Shown here: positions 12,354 through 58,071 of the stretch, one piece after another
How positions within the stretch are numbered: the first letter of the stretch is position 1
Layout of the letters: every line of letters starts with the position of its first letter
The notes under the pieces: model-generated
Databases searched by the model: none
Told to the model about the DNA's origin: nothing
Seen by the model: the letters and a program-made list of their open reading frames with translations, nothing else
Program-made: the position numbers and the translations under genes
Source: a bacterium
GTDB taxonomy: Bacteria > UBA8248 > JACPRG01 > G963555815
Assembly (NCBI GenBank): GCA_965261595.1
Contig: CBDHDG010000004.1
Location: forward strand, 768,001-832,000
Direction: 5' to 3'
Length of the DNA stretch: 64,000 nucleotides

Positions 12354-13235
12354 TCAGGTTTCCTTCTTTCCCTTCTTCAGAAAATAAAAGTAATCCCTGG
12401 CGACGGGGTTGGGCTTTGTGATCTCCCCATAAAGCTCCGGCCGGCGGTCTTTGAACACGCCGGGAATCGTCCGGTAGGGTTTGGGCAGGCTCAGGCTCTC
12501 CTCCGTTTCCCGGAGCCACTTCAAACGGTCCAGGTCCAACGTGGCGTAGATGATGCCCGGCCGGGCGCTCTCGGCGAGGATTCCCTCCGGGGCGGCGATG
12601 ACGGCCAGTCCGTCCTCCATGCCGAACAGGTTCTGGGTCACCACGACGTGGCAGAGGTTCTCGCTGGCGCGGGCCCAGACGATGTTCCGCCAGGCCTCCC
12701 GAATCTCGTACAGCACGCCCCCGATGGGCGCGACGATGATGTCCGCTCCCTTCAGGGCGAGGACGCGGCTCATCTCGGGCCACCAAAGCTCTCCGCAGAT
12801 GATCGTCCCGATGTTGCCGATGGGCGTCTCGAAGACGGGAAGCTCGTTGCCCGGCGCGATGAGCTTCCCCGGCAGCAGGCCCTCGGTCACGTCCGCCGTG
12901 TTGGGCTGAGAGCGGTGATACGTCCCGATGAGGCCGCCGTCCGGACCGATGAGCTTCAGGGCCAGGCGGTAAACACCTTCCCCCACGTCGGGAGCGGCCT
13001 CCACCCAGCTTGCGATGACGTACACCCCGAACCGCTTGGCCTGCTCTGAGAGGGGATCGAGGGGGGAGTAATCGGCCGGCCCGTTGTAAGGCCCGGTATA
13101 GCCCTCGGGGAAAAGGATCAACCGGGCGCCCCGGCCCGCCGCCTCCTCGATGGCCTCGAGGGCGCGCGGAACGTTCCCGGCCTCCGCCTCCCCGCGGAGC
13201 GTATTCGGCTGCACGGCCGCAACGACGACTTTCAT
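12354..13235 (-). CDS. Carbon-nitrogen hydrolase (nitrilase superfamily)
   Basis: ILFPEG, GTIICGELWWPE, ARASEN, DRRPELY motifs. Confidence 0.9.
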   Translation of the reverse strand: MKVVVAAVQPNTLRGEAEAGNVPRALEAIEEAAGRGARLILFPEGYTGPYNGPADYSPLDPLSEQAKRFGVYVIASWVEAAPDVGEGVYRLALKLIGPDGGLIGTYHRSQPNTADVTEGLLPGKLIAPGNELPVFETPIGNIGTIICGELWWPEMSRVLALKGADIIVAPIGGVLYEIREAWRNIVWARASENLCHVVVTQNLFGMEDGLAVIAAPEGILAESARPGIIYATLDLDRLKWLRETEESLSLPKPYRTIPGVFKDRRPELYGEITKPNPVARDYFYFLKKGKKET

Positions 13236-13249
13236 GGGCCTTTCCTCTT

Positions 13250-13312
13250 ACCCGCAGGGCTGTTCACCCGGAGGGCTGTTCACCCGGAGGGTATCTACCC
13301 GGGGGGCTATTT
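13250..13312. repeat. Four degenerate 15-16 bp tandem units (ACCCGGAGGGCTGTTC)
   Basis: Units start at 13250, 13266, 13282 and 13297. Confidence 0.75.
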
Positions 13313-14309
13313 AAGCGCCTTCTTCGAGAGATAGGGAACCTTCAGCTTACCGCTCTGGATGTCTTTCTCGATGGCGCGGACCCGCTTGGCCACGTCGGCC
13401 GGAACCCGCTTGTTGAAAGGCGACAGCCAGACTCCGCCATCGGTCGCGCTGACCAGGTAATGCTTCTTGAGCTTCTTGCCAGCTTTCATATCCAGGACGA
13501 TCTTTTTCAAGGCGGCATGCCAATTCCATATCGAGCTTGTGATGAACGTGTCCGGCACCAACGGTCTCATATCCACATAGATTCCGATGGCCATGATTCC
13601 CTTTTCTTCCGCGGCCTTGTAGGCCCCGAAGCCCAAGGGCTGTGCGGTCACGTCGATCACGTCCACCTTCTGGTCGACCATGGCGATGGCGGCTTCCTTG
13701 GCCTTGGGGGCGTCGAACCAGTCGTTGATGAAGATGCTCGAGATTCCGATCTTGGGGTTGATGGACCGCGCCCCCAGGTAGAATCCGTTATGGTCGGCGA
13801 TCTGTTGGGGGATGAGATATCCGCTGATGACGCCGATCTTTTGGGTCTTGGTCATCAAGGCAGCCAATATGCCGGCCAAGTAACCTGTCTCGTGCGCCTG
13901 AACCAGATAGTTCACCAGGTTCGGGATGTCCTTATTGTTGAAGAATCCCGCGACCGCGAAGGTCGTATTCGGGAAATTCTGGGCGACCTTCCGGGCGGGC
14001 GCCCCCCACGAGTACCCCTGTCCGAGGATGAGGTTGTACCCATCGACCGCCCAGCGGCGAAGCGTTCTCTCCATGTCCGCCACCTTCACGCGCTCCTAGA
14101 ACGTGACCTCGGCCACTCCGGGGTCCTTTTTGAGCTTCAAAGCTCCCTGGTATCCAGATTCGTACCAGCCTTTGTCGTTATTGGCGCCGTCGAGCCCGAT
14201 GGCGACGCGAATCTTCTTCGCCGCCGTCGCGGTTCCTCCAAATCCCGCCGCGAGCCACAAGGACACAAAAAGGCTCAGGAGAATCGCACGCCACAGTTTC
14301 CATTCTCAT
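13307..14309 (-). pseudogene. BMP family ABC substrate-binding protein, in-frame TAG at 14096-14098 and ATG out of frame
   Basis: Collinear with the intact paralog at 54706-55707 (KKIRVAIG..ND.GWYE.GY.GAL.LKKDPGV); TAG aligns with Gln. Confidence 0.85.
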
Positions 14310-14874
14310 CACTCACCCTCCTCCTGGTAGGATACCGATCCGCCCCGGGCGCCCCGGGAAATGGACAATCCATCGCCGGTATCAGCGATTTTCCGGATCA
14401 CCCCGCTCAACAATGCCCTGAATACATTTATCTGTATGGGAGCACACTTTGACGACAGGCTCAAGGTGTTTTTCGGAAGTCTTCCACCAAGAAAGGGGGC
14501 CAGGTCTTACATTCCAAGAATCCGCATCCGAATGGCGGCCCGGCCACACTGTGCTCCACGCAATGGAGCCCAAAGAACGCCCCGATGTCATGCAGGGTGT
14601 TGATATCGGAAGTGGACGATGAAGGCATTCAGCCCGATCGAGGCAATCCCTGCGATAGGGTCAGGCCGGCATCGAGTCGGAACAGCGCCGGGTGAATCTG
14701 AATCGGGCCTTCCGAGTTGACAATATTTTTGAAACCCGCGAGTATCTGGACAGAGAGCCGGGCAAAGGGAAAACTTTTGATCCCGGTCGATTGAGGGCAG
14801 TGCTCCACAACTGGAAATCCAGGGATGCCTTTGCCTCCATAATTTACCCAGGTGATTCTCAAGGGAGTCTGAAG

Positions 14875-30293: not shown

Positions 30294-30351
30294 GGCGACG
30301 GTTCAACTCCTCAAGAAAGAGCCGGGTCATCCGGGGAATTCAAAGGCTGGA

Positions 30352-30482
30352 ATCCACAGACTTCACAGATGACACAGATGAAAAAAGAAAAGTGAGAACC
30401 TGAAACGCCACCGGGCGCTGAATCATCTGATGACCGCCCCCTTGTCTTTTCAAAATCTGCGCAATCTGTGTAATCTGTGGAT
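30352..30482. repeat. Gene-less element with CACAGAT 9-bp-unit inverted termini, copy A
   Basis: ATCCACAGACTTCACAGATGACACAGAT ... ATCTGCGCAATCTGTGTAATCTGTGGAT. Confidence 0.85.
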
Positions 30483-30497
30483 CCACCCCCCCGGGCA

Positions 30498-35369: not shown

Positions 35370-36305
35370 TTGGACACCAACCTGATCATCGCCATTCTTC
35401 AAGCGACCGTCCGATCGGGCACGCCCATCCTCTTCGCCTGCGTCGGGGAGATCTACGCCGAGCGCTCGGGGAACCTGAACCTGGGGGTCGAGGGGATGAT
35501 GCTCATCGGGGCCATCGCGGGCTTTTTCGCAACCTTCATGACGCAGAGCCCCGTCGTGGGAGTGATCATGGCGGCCCTCATGGGGGCGGCCTTCTCCCTG
35601 ATCCACGCCTACGTGACGATCACCCTGCGCGCGGACCAGATCGTGAGCGGCCTGACGCTGACCCTCCTTGGCACGGGCATGAGCGGTTTCTTCGGACAAT
35701 CGATGGTCGGCCAGGTGGCGCCGGGCTTCGAGAAGCTGCCGATCCCCGGCCTGTCGGAGATTCCCTGGATCGGCACGATCCTCTTCCAGCAGGACGCCTT
35801 GGTGTATCTCTCCTACATCCTGGTCCCGATCGCGTGGTGGGTGCTCTACCGGACCCACCTGGGGCTGTCCATCCGGTCGGTGGGGGAGAGCCCGGACACG
35901 GCCGACTCTCTGGGCATCCGGGTGTCGGCCCTGCGGTACGGATGCGTGATGTTCGGCGGGGCCATGGCGGGCATCGCGGGGGCGTATCTGTCCCTGGCCT
36001 ACACGACGATGTGGATCGAGCAGATGACCGCGGGCCGGGGCTGGATCGCCATCGCCCTGGTCATTTTCGCCGGCTGGAGCCCCATGAAGGCGTTCCTGGG
36101 GGCGTACCTCTTCGGGGGCGCGGACGCCATGCAGCTTCGCTTCCAGGCCATCGGCACGCCCATCCCGGCCCACTTCCTCATGATGCTCCCTTACCTGTTG
36201 ACGATCGGCATCCTGATCCTGGCCACCCGGGAGTCCGTCCGCCGACGCCTCGGCGCCCCCGCGGCCCTGGGCATCCCGTACGCGCGGGAGGAAAGATCGA
36301 GATAA
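35370..36305 (+). CDS. Nucleoside ABC permease 2
   Basis: ERSGNLNLGVEG, AGRGWIAIALV, PAALG.PY motifs. Confidence 0.92.
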   Translation: MDTNLIIAILQATVRSGTPILFACVGEIYAERSGNLNLGVEGMMLIGAIAGFFATFMTQSPVVGVIMAALMGAAFSLIHAYVTITLRADQIVSGLTLTLLGTGMSGFFGQSMVGQVAPGFEKLPIPGLSEIPWIGTILFQQDALVYLSYILVPIAWWVLYRTHLGLSIRSVGESPDTADSLGIRVSALRYGCVMFGGAMAGIAGAYLSLAYTTMWIEQMTAGRGWIAIALVIFAGWSPMKAFLGAYLFGGADAMQLRFQAIGTPIPAHFLMMLPYLLTIGILILATRESVRRRLGAPAALGIPYAREERSR

Positions 36306-36583
36306 TCGGAAAAATCTAAAGGCCGGAATCCACAGATTTCACAGATTGCGCAGATAAGAACATAAAGGCGGGAATCCGCGACAATACGGGAGTCCCATCG
36401 ATATATGACCAACCTTTCGCCTTCTTGTTTTCTGTGGGGACTGTGAAATCCATGGATCGACATCCACTGAAAATGAGAGATCCAACGACGTATGCCATCA
36501 TCGGGGGGACGATGGTGGTGCACCGAGAAATGGGTCCTGGACCGCCCCTGGGTTATTGGACACTCGGGTGAGGGTATTCGACC

Positions 36584-37501
36584 TCATGCGGCCTCCGCAA
36601 CTTGAGCGAGTTTTTCCTGCCTTGCCTGGGCCGGCGTTCGGTAGCCGTAGCCCTCGAGAATCCAATGATGGTTATACAGGTTCTTGAACTCAAGCAGCGC
36701 CCACCGCAGTTCCTCTACGGTGGCGAAAGAGCGCACCCACAGGAGATTCTCCTTCAAGATGCGGATAAACCACTCACAGTAGCCATTTCCCTCGGGCGCC
36801 CGCACGAAGCTGGGCGAACTGGTCATGCCCAGGTAGGCGATCTCCCGCTGAAAGTCATCGGACAGATAGGCGGGGCCGTGGTCGTGACGAACTTTAAGCC
36901 CCTCGGCGACGTCCGCCTCCAAGCCGGCGAAGCGCTCGGCGACCCCCTGCCGGATCGGCTCCAGGGCCTCGAAGCGGTTGCCGCTCTTGGCCGCATGGAT
37001 CCCCACGCAGTCCACCGAACAGTGATCCACCGCCACGAACACCGAGGCCATCCCCTCCTCGGTGGTCACCGTCGTCGTCATGTGCGTGCCCCACATTCGG
37101 TCGGGCCGCTCGGTGCGGATGGTTCCGTTGTGGGCCTTGGGACCTCGGGGTTTGCCCACCCGGTGGGGGGCCTGAAGCCCCGCCTCCCGCATCAGGCGAC
37201 GCACCCGCTCCTTGCTGGTGCGGATGCCCGCGAAGCGCAGCCTCGCCCACACCTTGCGGTAGCCCTCGCCATGGAAGGGAGAGTCCTCCAGGACCTGCCG
37301 GATGTGGCCGAGGAGTTCCGCATCGGTGCACGGGCCCACAGGGCCGCGCTTATTGGGCGTGGGGCGTTCATGAACGGGGACCGCCTCTCGCCGCCGTTGC
37401 GCGTAGACCGTGGAGCGCGCCAAGCCCCAAAGGGCGCACACCCGCTTCAGGCCGTAGGCTCTGCCCGTGGAGGTGAAGCGGGCCTGACTCATCGCCTCCA
37501 C
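36584..37501 (-). CDS. IS3-family transposase OrfB, first catalytic Asp replaced by His
   Basis: GYRKVWARL, WGTHMT, RHDHG, GNGYCE motifs. Confidence 0.88.
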   Translation of the reverse strand: MEAMSQARFTSTGRAYGLKRVCALWGLARSTVYAQRRREAVPVHERPTPNKRGPVGPCTDAELLGHIRQVLEDSPFHGEGYRKVWARLRFAGIRTSKERVRRLMREAGLQAPHRVGKPRGPKAHNGTIRTERPDRMWGTHMTTTVTTEEGMASVFVAVDHCSVDCVGIHAAKSGNRFEALEPIRQGVAERFAGLEADVAEGLKVRHDHGPAYLSDDFQREIAYLGMTSSPSFVRAPEGNGYCEWFIRILKENLLWVRSFATVEELRWALLEFKNLYNHHWILEGYGYRTPAQARQEKLAQVAEAA

Positions 37502-37902
37502 CTCCTGCCGGCTAAAGGGCGGCCGGCCTCCAGGCGGTCGATCTTCTCCCGCAGGACCTCGCCCTCCATCGTGAGTTCGCCCACCTTGGCCTTGAGCCGG
37601 GCGTTCTCCTCGTCCCGCTCATCCGCCGGGCGGGCTTTGAGCGCCGCCTCGCCCCCGCGAAGGAACGCCTCGCGCCAGGCGGAAAGCCGAGCCGCTGTCG
37701 TGCCCAACTCGCGGCAGAGCGTCTCCAGGCTCTCGCCCCGCAAAAGACGCAGGACCGCCTCCCGCTTGCGCTGGCAGGAGAACCGACCCCGCTCACTGCG
37801 ATGCCCTGGGGCCTTGGCTCCGTTCGCCCTACGGGCGCCCTCCGCCAAAGCCCCCTCTTGCTTTTGTTCGTTCATCGCGACACCCCTTTCTCCATGAATC
37901 AT
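37489..37902 (-). CDS. IS3-family transposase OrfA
   Basis: HTH (KREAVLRLLRGE..RELG) and ENARLKAKVGELTME zipper. Confidence 0.85.
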   Translation of the reverse strand: MIHGERGVAMNEQKQEGALAEGARRANGAKAPGHRSERGRFSCQRKREAVLRLLRGESLETLCRELGTTAARLSAWREAFLRGGEAALKARPADERDEENARLKAKVGELTMEGEVLREKIDRLEAGRPLAGRRWRR

Positions 37903-38203
37903 GGATCAATCGAGTGTCCAACAAAACCCTAGAGCGGGGGAGTCCCGGCTTTCTGGAGGCGGTGTGCCAGGAGGCGCTCGCTTTAGAATTCGACGAGCGG
38001 GGGGCGCCATACCAACGCGAGGTCGAATTGCCGATTCTTTACAAAGGGCGACAGCTCGACACCCCCTATCGAGCGGATTTTATTGGGACTTATATATTTG
38101 GGTTAATTGCGTTCAGGCGGAGCATGAACGTGGAGCCCCTAGAATACAAGAGGCTTACATCCTATGTTTAGGGAATTATATACGATAGTGCCGGAACCGC
38201 CCG

Positions 38204-38395
38204 CTAGGACGGTCGGTCCTTCCACTTGATGTTGACGGGTCGAAACGCGGCCTGCGCCAGTTCCTCCGGCGTTGGCATGGAGCCGTCCGCCTTCCGAACG
38301 TCGATAGGTTTCTCCATCTCTGCCTTGCTCGGCTGGTAGGCCGAACGGACAAGCGTGACGGCAGCCTTTGGGGCGGGCTTCGGCTTCGCAGTCAT
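38204..38395 (-). CDS. Small hypothetical passenger protein (63 aa)
   Basis: ATGA overlap with the R-M stop; MTAKPKPAPKAAVTLVRSAYQPSKAEME. Confidence 0.5.
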   Translation of the reverse strand: MTAKPKPAPKAAVTLVRSAYQPSKAEMEKPIDVRKADGSMPTPEELAQAAFRPVNIKWKDRPS

Positions 38396-38854
38396 GTAGT
38401 AATCCCCCCGCCCAATCTTTCGCGCAGATTTTCGATCCGCTCTTGTGCAGACCATTTTTCCCTAATGCTGTTTTCGACATCGCCGCTGATCCTGGCGGTG
38501 TCGGTCGGGTCAACAGGGATCGGCAGCACAAGATGTCTCCATCGGTCGCCGATTGTCGGTAGCGTTATGTCAATACACACAAGATTGGGAATCTGATCTT
38601 GCACCGTTTTCGCCGAAAGGGCGGCGAGCAGGTAGAACGGCGTCAGACCATGTTTGTTGTCGTGGTCGAACAGGCGTAGCGTCATCAATTCACGAGTCAA
38701 CAAAACGTCGCCATCCCGTGGCGACGCCATCGCCACCGTTCCAATTCGATAACTGCCGCGACGCACAAAGATAACATCCTCGGGTTCCGGGCGCCGCTTC
38801 TTTTTACCAATAACGTCCCCCGCTCTAGGGTTTTGTTGGACACTCGATTGATCC

Positions 38855-39268
38855 ATGATTCATGGAGAAAGGGGTGTCGCGATGAACGAACAAAAGCAAG
38901 ATGGGGCTTTGGCGGAGGGCGCCCGCAGGGCGAACGGAGCCAAGGCCCCAGGGCATCGCAGTGAGCGGGGTCGGTTCTCCTGCCAGCGCAAGCGGGAGGC
39001 GGTCCTGCGTCTTTTGCGGGGCGAGAGCCTGGAGACGCTCTGCCGCGAGTTGGGCACGACAGCGGCTCGGCTTTCCGCCTGGCGCGAGGCGTTCCTTCGC
39101 GGGGGCGAGGCGGCGCTCAAAGCTCGCCCGGCGGATGAGCGGGACGAGGAGAACGCCCGGCTCAAGGCCAAGGTGGGCGAACTCACGATGGAGGGCGAGG
39201 TCCTGCGGGAGAAGATCGACCGCCTGGAGGCCGGCCGCCCTTTAGCCGGCAGGAGGTGGAGGCGATGA
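38855..39268 (+). CDS. IS3-family transposase OrfA
   Basis: Differs from copy 1 by a single residue. Confidence 0.85.
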   Translation: MIHGERGVAMNEQKQDGALAEGARRANGAKAPGHRSERGRFSCQRKREAVLRLLRGESLETLCRELGTTAARLSAWREAFLRGGEAALKARPADERDEENARLKAKVGELTMEGEVLREKIDRLEAGRPLAGRRWRR

Positions 39269-40173
39269 GTCAGGCCCGCTTCACCTCCACGGGCAGAGCC
39301 TACGGCCTGAAGCGGGTGTGCGCCCTTTGGGGCTTGGCGCGCTCCACGGTCTACGCGCAACGGCGGCGAGAGGCGGTCCCCGTTCATGAACGCCCCACGC
39401 CCAATAAGCGCGGCCCTGTGGGCCCGTGCACCGATGCGGAACTCCTCGGTCACATCCGGCAGGTCCTGGAGGACTCTCCCTTCCATGGCGAGGGCTACCG
39501 CAAGGTGTGGGCGAGGCTGCGCTTCGCGGGCATCCGCACCAGCAAGGAGCGGGTGCGTCGCCTGATGCGGGAGGCGGGGCTTCAGGCCCCCCACCGGGTG
39601 GGCAAACCCCGAGGTCCCAAGGCCCACAACGGGACCATCCGCACCGAGCGGCCCGACCGAATGTGGGGCACGGACATGACGACGACGGTGACCACCGAGG
39701 AGGGGATGGCCTCGGTGTTCGCGGCGGTGGATCACTGCTCGGTGGACTGCGTGGGGATCCATGCGGCCAAGAGCGGCAACCGCTTCGAGGCCCTGGAGCC
39801 GATCCGGCAGGGGGTCGCCGAGCGCTTCGCCGGCTTGGAGGCGGACGTCGCCGAGGGGCTTAAAGTTCGTCACGACCACGGCCCCGCCTATCTGTCCGAT
39901 GACTTTCAGCGGGAGATCGCCTACCTGGGCATGACCAGTTCGCCCAGCTTCGTGCGGGCGCCCGAGGGAAATGGCTACTGTGAGTGGTTTATCCGCATCT
40001 TGAAGGAGAATCTCCTGTGGGTGCGCTCTTTCGCCACCGTAGAGGAACTGCGGTGGGCGCTGCTTGAGTTCAAGAACCTGTACAACCATCATTGGATTCT
40101 CGAGGGCTACGGCTACCGAACGCCGGCCCAGGCAAGGCAGGAAAAACTCGCTCAAGTTGCGGAGGCCGCATGA
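39256..40173 (+). CDS. IS3-family transposase OrfB (DDE intact)
   Basis: WGTDMT, RHDHG, GNGYCE motifs. Confidence 0.9.
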   Translation: MEAMSQARFTSTGRAYGLKRVCALWGLARSTVYAQRRREAVPVHERPTPNKRGPVGPCTDAELLGHIRQVLEDSPFHGEGYRKVWARLRFAGIRTSKERVRRLMREAGLQAPHRVGKPRGPKAHNGTIRTERPDRMWGTDMTTTVTTEEGMASVFAAVDHCSVDCVGIHAAKSGNRFEALEPIRQGVAERFAGLEADVAEGLKVRHDHGPAYLSDDFQREIAYLGMTSSPSFVRAPEGNGYCEWFIRILKENLLWVRSFATVEELRWALLEFKNLYNHHWILEGYGYRTPAQARQEKLAQVAEAA

Positions 40174-42262
40174 GGTCGAATACCCTCACCCGAGTGTCCA
40201 ATAACCCAGGGGCGGTCCAGACGCGCTGGTATTCGTACAGCGGGATACCCGCCACCGGGTTCCGATACATTTCCCAATTCACAATATCCTTAACCCGGAT
40301 ATACGGAATTTCACCCCGCCCCTTTTCCTCGGACTTTGGTGAGCCATGCCCGTCCTAAGCCCCGATAATGCCGTCATCAATCAGGTCGCCTAATGTCACG
40401 CCGTCGCAGCCATCTGGCATGATGGGCGCGACGCGTAAACCTCGATAGAAACGGGAGACCAGAACATCTTGGTCAATCTCTTGCCAGGGCACTGAAAACA
40501 CATGGGCGTTGCCAGGGTTTTCAGGGTCGTCGATTTCGTCCATCACTTCCGCAAGATCGTCCCATAAATCGTCGGTGTCGGGCCGGTGAAGCGCGCGGCC
40601 TGTATGGTCATGCCCCATCTCTTCTGGCGTCGCCATGACAATGCTTCCCTGTTGCGCTTGGCCTTTGGCTAGAATCAGAAGGCAGGTTTTCGCATTGCAG
40701 TGCGGTCGGAAGGTGTTGTGCGGGAGATCGACTATTGCCCGAACATTATTCTCGGCCAGAAGGTGTTGCCGGACGTAACCAAGCGACGGCGCATGGAAGA
40801 CCGACTCTGGCAGGACGATGGCCAGCGTCCCGTCGTCCTTCACCATGTCGAGACACCGTTCGATGAACAGGATGTAGGGGTCGCGTTGGATTACATTCTT
40901 GGTGGGTTCCCACTGGTCGCCCATCTCGCGCCACTTATGGCCGAGCGTAAACATCGCCGCGTCTTCGGCCAGCACTTTCGTCTTCGTGCCGAACGGCGGG
41001 TTGGTAATTACAAGGTCGAACTGGCGGAACTGCCCCTCCTCGACCATGTGGGCCTTGGCCTCGGTGTCGAACTTGTCGGCTTCATGCAGTGAGTTTTCGT
41101 GGACGATGTTGCTGCGGCCGTCGCCCGCTATCGCCATGTGGGCCTTGGCGATCTTGACAAGATCGGTTTCCTTGTCGATTCCGAAAAAGCATTTAGCCGC
41201 CAGAGATTTCTTGCGCTCTTTCAGATTCGGGCTGCCACGCCATTTCGGGTTGTCCTCCATCCGCGCCCAGACATGCTCCATCGTGTGAATGAGGAATCCG
41301 CCCGAACCGCAGGCCGGGTCGCAGACCGTATCCCATGGCTCCGGATTGGCAAGTTTCACCGCGACGCGAACGACGCCGCGCGGCGTAAAGAACTCGCCTT
41401 TCTCACCGATGAACTTGGATTCGGAAAAGACCTTGAAGGCGTCGCCAACAACATCGCTGTCGGTATCCTGCAGGCTGCCGCGCTCCAACTGCCCGACCAC
41501 CCACGCCAACGATCGCTCATCCAGAGTGATGGTGTCATGCGCGGAGAAAATACCATCGTTCTTGAGTTCGTCGCGCACGCCAGCGAACAGGGTTTTGATC
41601 CGCTTCGCCACCACCTTCGGCTTTTCACCGGCACCCACTCGAAACTCGGACGGGCGCTCGGCTTAGGTCTGTTCGTCGTGCAACTTAGCGAAAATGACCT
41701 TTATCATCTCGCTGCCCAGCTTTTCCTTCCGGCTGATATTCGTATTCGCGTAAAGCGTGTGCAGGATGCGCCGGAAAGCCGATTGGAGCGCGCTTCGGTC
41801 GAACGGGCGAAGGTCGGCTCTTTCGATGCGCCCCACATCCTCGACGGACTGTCCGGCCGCCGGGATGTTGTTTAGGTAATCGCCGACGATCTTGTGGCCG
41901 TGGCGGGCCAGGTACGCGATATCGGTTCCGTTCGTCCAAACGCCCCATGCCGCCGACGTGGCGGTCATGTAGGATTTGATCTGCTCCAAGCCGTCTTTCC
42001 TCGTCGGTTTTTTGGTTTCGACGATGCCGAGAATGTGTTCTGCGGGATCACGCCCGCGGGCCGATTCGTAAACGACGATATCCGCCCGGTCCTTGTAGAA
42101 TCCGGTGCCGCGCGGGATCTTTACTTCGATATCGAGACGCTGTTTCGGGTAGCCGTAACTCTCGACCAGGATACGTTCATATTCTTGGCGCACACGCTCT
42201 TCGGGACTTTCGATATCGACCGGCTTGCCGGTCGCAAAATCGACGATTTTACTGGGCATGCC

Positions 42263-42340
42263 TCACGCCACCAAGGCTTCGTAGGTTAGCCGTTTCCCGA
42301 ACATGCCGGGGGCGATTCTCCCCAGGTACTCCATCGTGTC
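42263..42340 (-). pseudogene. IS1595-family transposase C-terminal remnant
   Basis: DTMEYLGRIAPGMFGKRLTYEALVA* just inside the IR. Confidence 0.75.
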
Positions 42341-42603
42341 TCCTTCATGTTATAGTGGCCCAAGAACTCGGTCAAGTCCAATATTAACCCAAATATATAA
42401 GTCCCATTTTATTTGCTTTGATTCGGTGATTGTCGAAACCAAAGCACTTGGCAAGCTCAGCAGGGTTGAAGAAGCTCAACTCATCAATTACCTGAAGGCC
42501 ACAGGACACAAAGTGGGTCTCCTGTTGAACTTCGGCACGGAGAAACTCGAACATCGAAGGTTTGTTTATTAATCTGTGTATTCTGTGAAATCTGTGGATT
42601 CCA

Positions 42604-44100
42604 ATGGACCTTGAAACATACCGCCGCCGGATGGAGGGATTCTCCGAGGCCCTCTCCCGCGAATCCTACGAAGGCCGGGCCGGGCTGAAGGAGCGGGTCT
42701 CGTACGCGGCCGTTTACGAGGCGTACGCCGACCTCTTCACCCGCGAAGCGGTGGACGCGCTGAGCTCAGCCGTCCAGTCGGCGGAAGACCGCGAGTCCGG
42801 CCATCGCTTGAAGCTGCTTTTGGGATCCGTCACCCTCGCCTACATCTCCAACCGCACGCGGAAGCTCCGGGAAGACGCGGAGAACTTCGAGGCCGCGGCG
42901 GAGGTGAAGCTCCCCGGCGGCGAGAAGCTCCCCTACCGCGCCTCCGCCGTCCGGATGCTCAACGAGCCCGACCGGGAGACGCGCCGGCGGCTCGAAGACG
43001 CCCGGGGCGCCGTCGTCCTCAAAAAGAACGAATTTCTCGAACCGATCCACCGCGACGTTCACGCCCTGGCCGGGGAGCTCGGCTACGGCTCCTACCTGGA
43101 CATGCTCGGGACGATCAAGTCCTACCCCCTCGAACCCGTCCGGGACGCCATGCGGGCCTTTCTCGAAGCGACCGAAACCCTTTATGCGCGCGAGATGGGA
43201 GCGGCCCTGGAGGGGATCGGGACGAAGCTGGACGAGGCCGCCCGCCACGACGCCGCCTATCTCTTCCGGGGCGGAGGGTTCGACGCCCTCTTTCCGCCGG
43301 ACGGGATCGCGGGCGCCGTGGCCGCTTCCGTGAAGCGGATGGGTCTCGACCTGTCGGCGGACGGGCGCATCATCCTCGACCTGGAGGCGCGGCCGACCAA
43401 AAGCCCCCGGGCGTTTTGCGCGACCCTGCGCGTGCCGGACGAGGTGATGATCGTCGTCCTGCCGCGCGGCGGGATGGACGATTACCACGCCTTCCTCCAC
43501 GAGCTCGGCCACGCCCTCCACTTCGCCTGGGTCCGGCCGGACGCGCCCTACGAATACCGCCTCCTCGGCGACAACTCCGTCACCGAGGGGTTCGCCATGC
43601 TGTTCGATCACCTACTCCTCAACGGCCGCTGGCTCCGCGAGGCCCTGGGGATCGTAGACACGCAAAAGCTCATCCGCCACCAACACCTGTACGAGCTCTA
43701 CATGCTCCGCCGGTACGCGGCCAAAATCGACTACGAGCTGACCCTCCACGAATCCGCCGGGCTTTCGGGCAAGGGTGAGGTATATGCCGAGAAGCTGGGC
43801 CGGGCCAACCGGATCCGGTACGCCCCCTCCCATTACCTGGAGGACGTGGACGCCCACTTTTACTGCGCCAACTACCTCCGGGCCTGGATGCTCCAGGCGG
43901 CCCTCACCGAGGCGTTGACCGAGCGGTTCGGCGAAACCTGGTTCCACGACCCGAGGGCGGGCGCGCTGCTGAAGGAAATCTGGGCGGACGGACAGAAAGA
44001 CAACGCCGAGGGGATACTGGCCCGGCTGATCGGAGAGGGCGGGCGGCCCCTCTCGCCAGATCCCCTCCGGGCCGCAATCGAACGGCATTTGGACGGATAG
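42604..44100 (+). CDS. M3-like (gluzincin) metallopeptidase
   Basis: K.PRAFC, HELGHALH, downstream TEGFA motifs. Confidence 0.8.
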   Translation: MDLETYRRRMEGFSEALSRESYEGRAGLKERVSYAAVYEAYADLFTREAVDALSSAVQSAEDRESGHRLKLLLGSVTLAYISNRTRKLREDAENFEAAAEVKLPGGEKLPYRASAVRMLNEPDRETRRRLEDARGAVVLKKNEFLEPIHRDVHALAGELGYGSYLDMLGTIKSYPLEPVRDAMRAFLEATETLYAREMGAALEGIGTKLDEAARHDAAYLFRGGGFDALFPPDGIAGAVAASVKRMGLDLSADGRIILDLEARPTKSPRAFCATLRVPDEVMIVVLPRGGMDDYHAFLHELGHALHFAWVRPDAPYEYRLLGDNSVTEGFAMLFDHLLLNGRWLREALGIVDTQKLIRHQHLYELYMLRRYAAKIDYELTLHESAGLSGKGEVYAEKLGRANRIRYAPSHYLEDVDAHFYCANYLRAWMLQAALTEALTERFGETWFHDPRAGALLKEIWADGQKDNAEGILARLIGEGGRPLSPDPLRAAIERHLDG

Positions 44101-44378: not shown

Positions 44379-45476
44379 CTACCCCCAGACCTCTTTCGCC
44401 GTCTCGGCGACGAGACGCAGCTTGGCTTCCTGTTCGGCGGGGGTGATGAGGTTGCCCTCTATCGTCGAGGCGAACCCGCACTGCGGGCTCAGCGCCAGCC
44501 GCTCCAGGGGGATGAACCGCTCGGCTTCGCGTATCCTGTCTTTCAGCTTCTCCCGGCTTTCCAACGCGCCCGTCTTCGTACTCACCAGGCCCAGGACGAC
44601 CGTTCGGTCATCGGGGACCCACTTGAGCGGCTCGAAACCGCCGGAGCGCTCGTCGTCATATTCAAGAAGAAACCGGCCGAACCGGGTCTTCTGGAAAATC
44701 TTGGCCGCGATGGGTTCATAGCCGCCGCCGGCGTAGAACTTGCTCTGGTTGTTCCCCCGGCAAAGATGCATGGCGAAGGTCACCCCCGAAAACCCCTCGA
44801 TGACGGCGTTGTCCCGCTCGATGCAGGCGTCGAGGAGGCGATCCGGGTCGTTCCCGCGCCGGCGGTACATCTCGCGAACCTCGGGGTCCAGCAGGCCGGC
44901 GTACTGGGGGGCGTCCACCTGGATGATCTGGCACCCCAGCCGCACGAGCTCCTCCACCTCGCCCCGGAGGATGTCCACGACGTCGGCCATGTAGGCGTCC
45001 AGCGACGGGTAGGCCGCTTGCGACTTGTCCGGCTCGTAATAGGACGCGGCCTGTTGGGCGTTGATGAGCGTGGCCTTGACGCAAACGCCGCCCTCGCCGG
45101 TTCCGGCGCGCAGGTAAGCGAACTCTTCGGCGCACATGTGCCGCCGCCGTTTCAGGCGGCTCACGACGACGGGACGGCCGAAGGAGTGCGTCTCCCCTTC
45201 TTCGTTCCGGTAGGTCAGGGCCTTCCCGCCCCACTTGTCGAATCCCTCAACGGCGTCCACGAGATGGCCGAAGAAGGCGTACCGGCGCATCTCGCCGTCG
45301 GTGATCACGTCCAGGCCGGCGTCCGTCTGAAGGGCCACGGCCTCATCGACCGCCCGGTCCTCGATCTCCTTGAATTCCGCATGGGTGATCTCCCCGGCTT
45401 CGCGCCGGTCTCTGGCCGCTTTCAGGTCATCCGGACGAAGCAGGCTGCCGACGACGGTGGCTCGGATCTCGTCCAT
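44379..45476 (-). CDS. Cobalamin-independent methionine synthase II family (MetE core domain), paralog 1
   Basis: VGSLLRP, TDGEMRR, HLCRGN, LEYD, SPQCGFAS motifs. Confidence 0.9.
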   Translation of the reverse strand: MDEIRATVVGSLLRPDDLKAARDRREAGEITHAEFKEIEDRAVDEAVALQTDAGLDVITDGEMRRYAFFGHLVDAVEGFDKWGGKALTYRNEEGETHSFGRPVVVSRLKRRRHMCAEEFAYLRAGTGEGGVCVKATLINAQQAASYYEPDKSQAAYPSLDAYMADVVDILRGEVEELVRLGCQIIQVDAPQYAGLLDPEVREMYRRRGNDPDRLLDACIERDNAVIEGFSGVTFAMHLCRGNNQSKFYAGGGYEPIAAKIFQKTRFGRFLLEYDDERSGGFEPLKWVPDDRTVVLGLVSTKTGALESREKLKDRIREAERFIPLERLALSPQCGFASTIEGNLITPAEQEAKLRLVAETAKEVWG

Positions 45477-45525
45477 CCGGGTCCTCCTCACGTTTTGACG
45501 GAGCGATGCGCTCCCCTGCCGAGGT

Positions 45526-46614
45526 CTAGCCCCAAACCTCTTTCGCCGTCTCGGCGACGAGACGCAGCTTGGCTTCCTGCTCAGCGGGGGTGATGAGGTT
45601 GCCCTCCATCGTCGAGGCGAACCCGCATTGCGGGCTCAGCGCCAGCCGCTCCAGGGGTACGACCTGTTGGGCCTCCCCGATGCGCGTCTTGAGCGTCTCG
45701 CGATCCTCCAACTCGGGCTTTTTCGTGCTCAGGAGGCCGAGGACGACCGTCCGGTCGTCGGGGACCTGTCCCAGCGGCTCGAATCCCCCGGAGCGCTCGT
45801 CGTCATACTCCAACAGGAACCGCTGGAAGCGGGTCTTCTGGAAGACCTTCGCGGCGATGGGGTCGTAGCCGCCGCTGGCGTAGAACTTGCTCTGGTTGTT
45901 CCCCCGGCAGATGTGGAGGCCGAACACCGCTTCCGAATGGCCTCCGATGACCGCGTTGTCCATCTCGATGCAGGTGTCGATGAGTCGGTCCGGGTCGTTC
46001 CCCCGTTTTCGGTACCCTTCCCGGATCTCCGGATCAAGCAGCGCGGCGTATTGGGGTCCGTCGATCTGAATGTACCGGCAGCCGAGCCGGATCAACTCCT
46101 CCACCTCGCCCCGGAGGATGTCCACGATGTCGGCGAGATAGGCGTCCACCGTGGGATACGCCCCCTTGGATTTTTCGGCGTCATAGTAAGCCGCCGACTG
46201 CTGGGCGCTGATGAACGTGGCCTTGACGGGCACGCCGGTTTTCGCCCGGAGATACGCGATCTCCTCGGCGCACAGGTGGCGCTTTCTCTTGAGCTTCGAG
46301 ACGACGACCGGACGGGGGTAGGTGATCTCCCCGCCCTTTTCGTCCCGGAACGGGATGGCCCAGCCGCCCAACCGGTCGAACCCCTCGACAGCATCGACCA
46401 GATGGCCGAAGAAGGCGTATCGCCGCATCTCGCCGTCGGTGACCACGTCCAACCCGATGTCGGCTTGAAGGGCGACGGCCTCGTCCACGGCCCGGTCCTC
46501 GATCCCCTTGAACTCGGCGTCGGTGATCTCCCCGGCCTCGAACCTCTCCCGGGCCTCTTTCAGATAATCCGGCCGCAACAGGCTCCCAACAACATCGCTT
46601 CGGAACTCGACCAT
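45526..46614 (-). CDS. Cobalamin-independent methionine synthase II family (MetE core domain), paralog 2
   Basis: VGSLLRP, TDGEMRR, HICRGN, LEYD, SPQCGFAS motifs. Confidence 0.9.
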   Translation of the reverse strand: MVEFRSDVVGSLLRPDYLKEARERFEAGEITDAEFKGIEDRAVDEAVALQADIGLDVVTDGEMRRYAFFGHLVDAVEGFDRLGGWAIPFRDEKGGEITYPRPVVVSKLKRKRHLCAEEIAYLRAKTGVPVKATFISAQQSAAYYDAEKSKGAYPTVDAYLADIVDILRGEVEELIRLGCRYIQIDGPQYAALLDPEIREGYRKRGNDPDRLIDTCIEMDNAVIGGHSEAVFGLHICRGNNQSKFYASGGYDPIAAKVFQKTRFQRFLLEYDDERSGGFEPLGQVPDDRTVVLGLLSTKKPELEDRETLKTRIGEAQQVVPLERLALSPQCGFASTMEGNLITPAEQEAKLRLVAETAKEVWG

Positions 46615-46823
46615 TCCGGACCCTTCTTTCGGAATTTGCGCCATCGCGTCAGGGCACTCCCCGAAAACAGAGGGGCGCTTTCAGCAAACCGCTCTTACGA
46701 TAACCGTTTTCAAGGGAAAATTGGAGATCCACCGGCCGACGCGCCGGGGGAACACGGGCGACCCACGAGCGAGCCCCGCGAATCGGAGACCCATGGACTT
46801 TCAGACCGCCGTCCGGCTTCGGA

Positions 46824-52704: not shown

Positions 52705-52828
52705 ATCCACAGATTACACGGAATGGAAAGAAAAGAACCAAAGACCGGATTCGGGATCTGGAGCGTCCTGATTTGATTTCTTAATAGGATGCCGCCCTTG
52801 TTTTTGAAAATCTGTGTAATCTGTGGAT
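52705..52828. repeat. Gene-less element with CACAGAT 9-bp-unit inverted termini, copy B
   Basis: ATCCACAGATTACACGGAAT ... AATCTGTGTAATCTGTGGAT; interior homologous to copy C. Confidence 0.88.
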
Positions 52829-57947: not shown

Positions 57948-58071
57948 ATCCGCAGATTACACAGATTGAAAAGAAAAGGACCAAAGAGCGGATTCAGGGA
58001 CCTGGAGCGTCCTGATTTAACTTTTTGAAAGGTGTGGCCCTGTTTTTTGAAAATCTGCGTAATCTGCGGAT
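57948..58071. repeat. Gene-less element with CACAGAT 9-bp-unit inverted termini, copy C
   Basis: ATCCGCAGATTACACAGATT ... AATCTGCGTAATCTGCGGAT; same 124-bp length as copy B. Confidence 0.88.

Follow-up and report, generated by a model that had tools for sequence, protein, structure and literature searches.

A broken GxxExxY gene between inverted arms of 9-bp units: a candidate coding member of a selfish repeat-and-nuclease system

The stretch examined here (the window, 64,000 nucleotides of contig CBDHDG010000004.1) comes from a 6.2-Mb bacterial genome, G000. Between a host ABC permease gene and a peptidase gene it carries a GxxExxY gene that is bracketed by two inverted arms of tandem 9-bp units and split into three pieces by two insertions. 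From left to right, positions 36325-42602 comprise the left arm, a spacer, a degenerate reverse arm, the start of the gene, an IS3-family insertion sequence (IS), the middle of the gene, a 4.3-kb element, the end of the gene and the right arm (Table 1). A sequence-only reading of the window had proposed that removal of the insertions rebuilds a cassette of about 540 bp with one 127-residue open reading frame (ORF), and excision of both in silico did produce a 541-bp cassette with a single 127-codon GxxExxY frame, from the ATG at 36452 to the TAA at 42572. The inverted termini it described are also present, with positions 36325-36345 identical to the reverse complement of 42582-42602 at 21 of 21 bases and three 9-bp units in each arm. 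The right arm shares bases with the stop codon and stops 1 bp short of the next ATG, also as described. One refinement is an additional degenerate reverse arm at 36431-36457, which makes the left 133 bp of the cassette a complete gene-less hairpin (folding z of −4.2). This 133-bp unit aligns along both arms and spacer with a gene-less unit at 30349-30485 and with units in G001, a genome of the same genus as the window, and G001 also retains the right arm before the orthologous peptidase.

The two insertions are ordinary IS-type elements. A contig joining 36533 to 37942, which represents an allele without the IS3-family element, is present in all four of the public sequencing runs (four studies). 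In two runs a contig joins 38084 to arm-like sequence on the other strand, as expected of an allele that lacks the second insertion, the letters beyond the joint being unreadable; a third run carries this insertion. No other letters are listed by the run contigs in those gene pieces that they cover. Because contigs lacking the IS3-family element list no variant letters in the gene pieces, the substitutions in the gene probably preceded the insertions, and the gene was probably already decaying before they arrived. The IS3-family element itself has 178 full-length copies of about 99% identity in the genome, reflecting a very recent burst, and is missing from the cassette site in other populations. 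The element at 38085-42405 has passengers in the form of an HSDR_N frame (41663-42259), an N6 methyltransferase (40355-41638) and a specificity-subunit-like piece (38392-38856), and its left end resembles sequence adjoining IS1595 transposase matches. It belongs to a family of transposase-less elements (L249, L250 and L251) that have the same 23-bp ends, 7-8 bp duplications and differing passengers (restriction-modification pieces in the window copy, three unknown frames in L249). The 54 IS1595 transposase matches in G000 could act on this family in trans.

Table 1. Features of the cassette, its flanks and related gene-less units, in window positions. TIR, terminal inverted repeat.
Feature	Position	Strand	Remarks
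Gene-less hairpin copy	30349..30485		Same spacer family as the cassette's left unit; retained at its position in G001, with gain or loss of whole 9-bp units
Host ABC permease (BPD_transp_2)	35370..36305	+	Stop codon is the insertion site of the cassette
Left arm	36325..36357	+	Conserved outer ATCC end, then three 9-bp CRCAGAT units
Complete gene-less hairpin unit	36325..36457 (133 bp)		Left arm, spacer and degenerate reverse arm
GxxExxY gene, piece 1	36452..36536	+	ATG at 36452; an alternative ATG at 36473 fits many homologues
IS3-family element	36537..37941	-	HTH_Tnp_1 plus HTH_21/rve frames; 3-bp target duplication
GxxExxY gene, piece 2	37945..38084	+	Motif reads GxxExxC; contains the catalytic Asp
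Non-autonomous IS1595-type element	38085..42405		23-bp TIRs; 8-bp duplication 38077-38084 / 42406-42413
Second IS3-family copy	38816..40220	+	Nested in the IS1595-type element
GxxExxY gene, piece 3	42414..42572	+	ExK and QxxxY motifs, stop codon
Right arm	42570..42602	-	Overlaps the gene's stop codon; ends 1 bp before ATG 42604
Host M3-like peptidase	42604..44100	+	Downstream flank
Gene-less convergent arm pair	52705..52828		G000 C4 820705-820828
Gene-less convergent arm pair	57948..58071		G000 C4 825948-826071; related to the pair at 52705

Two of the three gene pieces match the family models, with 63.4 and 45 bits for TIGR04256 (cut-off 35) and 57.6 and 42.8 bits for PF13366 (cut-off 22), and this is the only GxxExxY gene of G000. 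In the available part of one source (PMC3424549), PF13366 is listed among families of unknown function. Judged by its sequence, the window copy is a degenerate member of the GxxExxY (PDDEXK_3) family. The change of the motif Tyr to Cys, for which, together with the two insertions, it had been called dead, is confirmed, and four more invariant residues are also changed; altogether 5 of the 21 columns invariant in 52 homologues are altered, against at most 3 in any of 80 selected GTDB loci. The catalytic D, ExK and Q positions are unaltered in all 80 of these loci, and E35, D75, E85, K87 and Q99 are invariant across the 52 sequences. We take this set (E, D, ExK, QxxxY) to be that of RecB-type nucleases.

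We used a predicted structure of an intact homologue (pLDDT 91.7) for structural comparisons. The best Foldseek match was Cas4 SSO0001 (E 2.6e-4), and VIA gave BpuSI at Z 8.4 (rmsd 2.8, 95 aligned) and SSO0001 at Z 8.0 (rmsd 4.4, 100 aligned). Further matches of the model were RecE, lambda exonuclease and the nuclease domains of AdnA/AddA and BpuSI, and a sequence search of solved structures returned none. The protein is thus predicted to have a PD-(D/E)XK fold, nearest those of Cas4 and lambda exonuclease; for a model, Z scores of about 8 establish fold, not function. A homodimer prediction scored 0.00, which gives no verdict and is evidence neither way. Many homologues (P0241, P0244 and others) are tandem two-domain proteins of about 265 residues, which hints at a dimer, and in two (P0319 and P0354) the protein is joined to a frame that has a pilin N-methylation motif, probably via read-through.

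The arms are not confined to the cassette. A relaxed arm pattern found 73 arms in G000 against none for the reversed pattern, and the arms are therefore not due to chance. Their consensus is ATCC followed by two (43 arms) or three (30 arms) 9-bp units, which are tandem and non-palindromic. Convergent pairs no more than 400 bp apart, of gene-less size, account for 42 of the 73 arms, and adjacent pairs are oriented +- in 20 cases, -- in seven, ++ in three and -+ in one. All five gene-less units that were folded form strong hairpins (z from −4.1 to −6.9), and the spacers between arms fall into small families with members at distant loci. At one locus (L214; G000 C5 620494-621231) there are four tandem units of about 235 bp with one arm each. 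Other palindromic repeats are nested between arms or lie in the same spacers (G000 C1 203513, C6 706085, C6 1151155 and C7 1179583; downstream in L040), which indicates that several repeat families share these sites.

When 20 arm loci of G001 were compared with G000, most were found in place and differed by whole 9-bp units; one gene-less site of G001 is empty in G000, with a fuzzy junction. One G001 unit has about 45 bp of outside flank that match the last codons of the window's permease and the linker (score 48, against a background maximum of 26 in 2000 random stretches). Since the end of the permease is host sequence and is conserved in G004, a related genome in which no arms were found, this match suggests that the flank-bearing unit most likely derived from the permease locus and came out together with its flank.

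Alleles of the site behind the permease were examined in related genomes. In G006 a two-armed cassette, whose GxxExxY gene is frameshifted near its end, stands between the permease stop and a dUTPase, and in G004, of the same genus, only 22 bp lie between the permease stop and the dUTPase. Filled and empty alleles of one site thus occur within one genus, and the empty allele has no arm word. The sequence-only reading had placed the expected empty site between permease and peptidase; no such empty junction was found in the relatives, where the peptidase has other neighbours, and the empty site proved to be that between permease and dUTPase. In G003 the site is occupied by an MNT/HepT toxin-antitoxin pair, together with a degenerate arm and a second, 72-bp copy of the end of the permease (L039:2355-3340). 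Flank duplications resembling this copy of the permease end were also seen around cassettes in L083 and L098.

The permeases of G001 and G000 are 96.7% identical in nucleotide sequence and 93.5% identical at third positions. The truncated GxxExxY allele of G001 at the same site, however, is only 62.9% identical to the window gene over the common 210 bases and 38.6% identical at third positions, and 35 of the 80 GTDB loci, with hosts in many phyla, are closer to the core of the window gene than this same-site allele is. Relaxed selection cannot give such an excess of third-position change over the neighbouring permease, which implies that the gene was replaced in one lineage. The sequences point to G001 as the lineage in which it was probably swapped, since in a 210-column tree G000 is nearer to G006 than to G001, making G001 the likelier newcomer. 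All three GxxExxY copies at this site (G000, G001 and G006) are broken. The locus is useful in that five related genomes present five states of the site: empty, filled, swapped, other cargo and decayed.

Arms were examined across the protein family with a GxxExxY profile, which gathered 13,584 clusters at 50% identity (E up to 1e-10, two-domain forms included). The clade A set is the best 80 of 591 GTDB loci, 74 of them with full flanks, and the second-clade set is the best 80 of 572 metagenome loci. Of the 74 clade-A loci, 63 have inverted arms (match score of at least 14 across the gene) and 58 have convergent CRCAGAT arrays; such inverted matches occur in 2 of 124 shifted control windows. 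Of 61 second-clade loci, 45 carry arms, and in most of these the word is CAGGAT or the period is 10 bp. The enrichment of such termini around GxxExxY genes that had been proposed from the window is therefore found in both clades. The 80 clade-A loci bear 16 phylum labels, with hosts mixed within the clade.

On a quick tree of 160 proteins, which is not a finished careful one and in which row L181 is a long branch, the arm word changes 23 times, against 75 times with shuffled labels. Because kin share word labels, this fit between word and clade shows linkage, not recognition. The arms often extend into the reading frame, and the translated words at the protein ends split by clade without crossover in 240 proteins (20 and 42 of 120 vs 0; 64 and 19 of 120 vs 0). 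The genes flanking cassettes are mostly unrelated housekeeping genes, often at operon junctions (gltB-gltD, nuoD-nuoH, gatA-gatB, cysS-rlmB). The gltB-gltD junction is occupied in L073, L082, L093 and L095 (three Verrucomicrobiota and one Planctomycetota), which are scattered in the protein tree. In 36 single-arm cassettes the search for a target-site duplication gave the same distribution as shuffled pairs.

Presence of the gene and abundance of the arms go together across genomes, as had also been anticipated. Among 41 relatives, at least three hits of the arm pattern occur solely in the three gene-bearing genomes (44, 35 and 4 hits), and one other genome has a single hit. In another class (121 genomes), at least three hits occur in 12 of 18 genomes with a clade-A gene (11 of 17 minus the centre genome) against 7 of 103 without one; there are one or two clade-A genes per genome. 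Of five genomes of the family, G006 alone has the second arm word, with gene-less pairs, and it alone has a second-clade gene. A type I methyltransferase (HsdM) gene beside that gene (L033:12-1403) contains two in-frame gene-less hairpins of the second word. One of these stands where a homologue has a linker of about the same length, which gave no precise junction.

Other partners and vehicles for the arms were considered. A RAYT or Y1 transposase was rejected as the partner enzyme, as none was found in three of five genomes (G001, G089 and G071, all arm-rich) and all seven Y1_Tnp loci of G000 and G006 have no arm within 1.5 kb. A phage or plasmid vehicle was likewise rejected: the GxxExxY gene occurs in 0 of 50,697 phage records and 8 of 72,556 plasmid records, and a piece of the window had no match in viral contigs. 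A clade alignment run against viral contigs found two distant viral loci, with arms of other words.

Two further observations concern sequences outside the cassette. Positions 44379-46644 of the window hold two tandem paralogous frames of about 370 residues, of which G001 has three and which presumably resemble cobalamin-independent methionine synthase II. Contig C1 of G000 has a long inverted duplication at its two ends (13000-14750 and 221176-222914).

We think it fairly probable that the locus is a coding member, now decayed, of a selfish repeat-and-nuclease system that works as a partnership of the REPIN/RAYT type but relies on another enzyme. In such a system the GxxExxY protein would bind the phased 9-bp units of its own arms, with one word per protein clade, and its fold suggests that it would nick or cut at or near an arm, on duplex DNA or on an extruded hairpin. 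Host recombinational repair would then copy the arm-bounded unit into the break, an enzymology that we infer from the footprints described above. Copying by repair would leave no target duplication, would replace a short stretch, might carry tens of bases of donor flank and would make local duplications. Units would land in spacers just past stop codons, at low cost, as is seen at this site. Genes would invade such sites, decay and be replaced or lost, leaving gene-less hairpins that are inherited vertically, and the window copy would represent the decay phase, in which it was then interrupted by two commonplace insertions. Recognition and spreading of the arms by the nuclease, as supposed in the sequence-only reading, we likewise infer. 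The three checks by which that reading could have been refuted, on enriched termini, an empty site and the tie between arm abundance and gene presence, all came out in its favour, and its interpretation is partly supported.

Several observations weigh against this reading. The 80 clade-A loci were chosen by conserved motifs, which favours intact genes, and related genomes do not count as independent. Given the physical linkage of gene and arms, the covariation of word and clade could be simple co-inheritance. Most gene-less units common to G000 and G001 stay put, so mobility is low, and G000 keeps its 73 arms though its only GxxExxY gene is dead. The junctions at the empty sites are too diverged or fuzzy to fix the position of a cut. 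An approximately unbiased (AU) test on 210 columns, with a poor free search, did not reject a clade of G000 and G001 (p-AU 0.77), so that the case for the swap is made by the divergence at third positions and the identity ranks. Finally, among five of the seven arm-rich genomes in which no clade-A gene was detected, three have no GxxExxY match at all at E 1e-5 and two have only distant matches, although these are metagenome-assembled genomes in which the gene may be unassembled, and arms also adjoin MNT, HepT and DUF433/DUF5615 genes.

The last two points would also be expected if some other enzyme, or host recombination at hairpins, spread the arms, with GxxExxY as one passenger of several and perhaps an arm-binding self-regulator. 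That the toxin-antitoxin pair of G003 sits at this very site, and that tandem duplications with breakpoints at arms are common, would fit this explanation too. Nevertheless, no second gene recurs beside cassettes in 99 flanking frames, which are mostly unrelated housekeeping genes, and Y1 transposases were not found in G001, G089 or G071 and, where present, are armless. The clade-specific word is kept over 16 phylum labels, moreover, and the second word is found only alongside the second clade. We therefore regard a passenger role as unlikely, if worth keeping in mind.

It is more doubtful still that the cassettes are RNA-level units akin to the intervening sequences of 23S rRNA, in which the arms would pair in an operon transcript and the stem would be cut by RNase III or the protein, making the insertion tolerable or regulatory. 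The G006 cassette does fold as RNA with its arms paired end to end (z −3.7), and cassettes lie at operon junctions with the upstream frame co-oriented with the cassette gene in 46 of 58 loci (crude ORF calls). Any inverted repeat pairs, however, and an intergenic insertion requires no excision; the nearest folds are mostly DNases, Rfam had no match in the four loci scanned, and the spread, flank capture and allele swapping are left unexplained. Equally improbable is a host-serving defence or toxin-like nuclease swapped under phage pressure, with the arms as regulatory or recombination sites, for although allele turnover at one site, the several cassettes adjoining restriction-modification or toxin-antitoxin genes and a near-absence from phages and plasmids like that of host-kept genes would suit it, PADLOC has no match to the nuclease of either clade, none of the three copies at this site is intact, housekeeping operons make up most of the flanks, and such a role would leave the dozens of gene-less copies that carry the cognate word unexplained.

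A bolder reading, which we advance only tentatively, is that GxxExxY proteins mobilise a class of prokaryotic DNA elements whose chemistry is none of the DDE, HUH, serine and tyrosine types. In this view a minimal nuclease resembling Cas4 would read a phased tandem word in its own arms and open the DNA there, and host repair would copy cassettes and gene-less hairpins into spacers and in-frame protein linkers in most bacterial phyla. This gene-plus-arms system is apparently undescribed, no account of the arms having been found in the literature searched, which took in neither supplements nor subscription papers. The arms give the very large PF13366 family a specific, testable substrate and, because word and clade change together, a built-in specificity code. 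If the protein does mobilise the units, this would also explain why a repeat family is abundant in Acidobacteriota, Planctomycetota, Verrucomicrobiota and further phyla, most of them uncultured. A nuclease of 120 residues that is predicted to read a repeat word could perhaps serve as a tool.

Several known systems resemble this one in part. Rpn and YhgA-like proteins belong to the PD-(D/E)XK fold class. The available parts of two sources describe Rpn nucleases (PF04754) as once proposed to promote mobility and later as antiphage toxins (PMC5350276, PMC10400941); they too are small nucleases at variable loci, but GxxExxY is a different family, and repeat arms bracketing Rpn genes were not met in the material covered. 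Intervening sequences of 23S rRNA with an S23p frame have a small frame in an end-to-end hairpin and are regarded as selfish in the portion of the literature covered (PMC4990558); unlike them, the cassettes lie between protein genes, and the protein fold differs.

Pairs of DDE-type ISs and miniature inverted-repeat transposable elements (MITEs), of which the IS1595-type elements of the window are an example, have terminal inverted sequences and autonomous and non-autonomous members in common with the cassettes. The cassettes, however, lack target duplications and have imprecise ends with flank capture, variable interiors, a low gene copy number and a protein of 13-14 kDa without the DDE fold, and a DDE IS/MITE pair was rejected for want of a fixed-length target duplication in the 36 cassettes. 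Free-standing homing endonucleases, some of which are PD-(D/E)XK members, go through a cycle of invasion, decay and reinvasion. The GxxExxY cassettes similarly show present, absent, broken and replaced alleles at one fixed site together with flank co-copying; in contrast to homing endonucleases, their target would seem to be their own repeat word and not a conserved host sequence, and they occupy many unrelated sites with a large gene-less population.

TIRtrons, as described in the part of Di Nocera 2013 available (PMC3733652), have one gene, TIRYT, between TIRs that also form dispersed singles, dimers and clusters, and Acidobacteria are among their hosts. According to the same material, the HUH motif and the catalytic tyrosine known from IS200/IS605 are still present in TIRYTs, and the TIR motif GGGGWSAS is unrelated to the arms. 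Membership of either the TIRtrons or the REPIN/RAYT system was rejected, as the bracketed gene is a PF13366 gene and not HUH and the arms are not palindromes.

The closest parallel is to REPINs, which are built from repetitive extragenic palindromes (REPs), and their REP-associated tyrosine transposases (RAYTs). In the portions of three sources covered, a low-copy chromosomal nuclease gene is flanked by cognate repeats, and gene-less inverted hairpin doublets occur (PMC3116915, PMC3337134, bioRxiv 10.1101/119735). As far as that material goes, both systems have such a gene and many extragenic gene-less doublets, an own repeat group for each enzyme group, tandem clusters, rarity on plasmids and long persistence. 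They differ in the enzyme, which is an HUH Y1 transposase in RAYTs and a predicted PD-(D/E)XK protein like Cas4 and lambda exonuclease here, and in the repeats, since a REP is a short palindrome with a GTAG/CGTC tag whereas the arms are phased tandem 7-mers with a period of 9-10 bp. The GxxExxY arms, in addition, overlap the gene ends and are often translated, and the GxxExxY tree mixes phyla, with the gene swapped at one site, whereas RAYTs are described in the same sources as mainly vertical. Of the two parallels drawn by the sequence-only reading, that with RAYT/REPIN therefore holds for layout and distribution, and that with IS/MITE pairs fails in mechanism because of the missing target duplication, fuzzy ends, co-copied host flank and low gene copy number. 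If the GxxExxY protein does mobilise these units, REPIN-type repeat populations would have arisen a second time with an unrelated enzyme.

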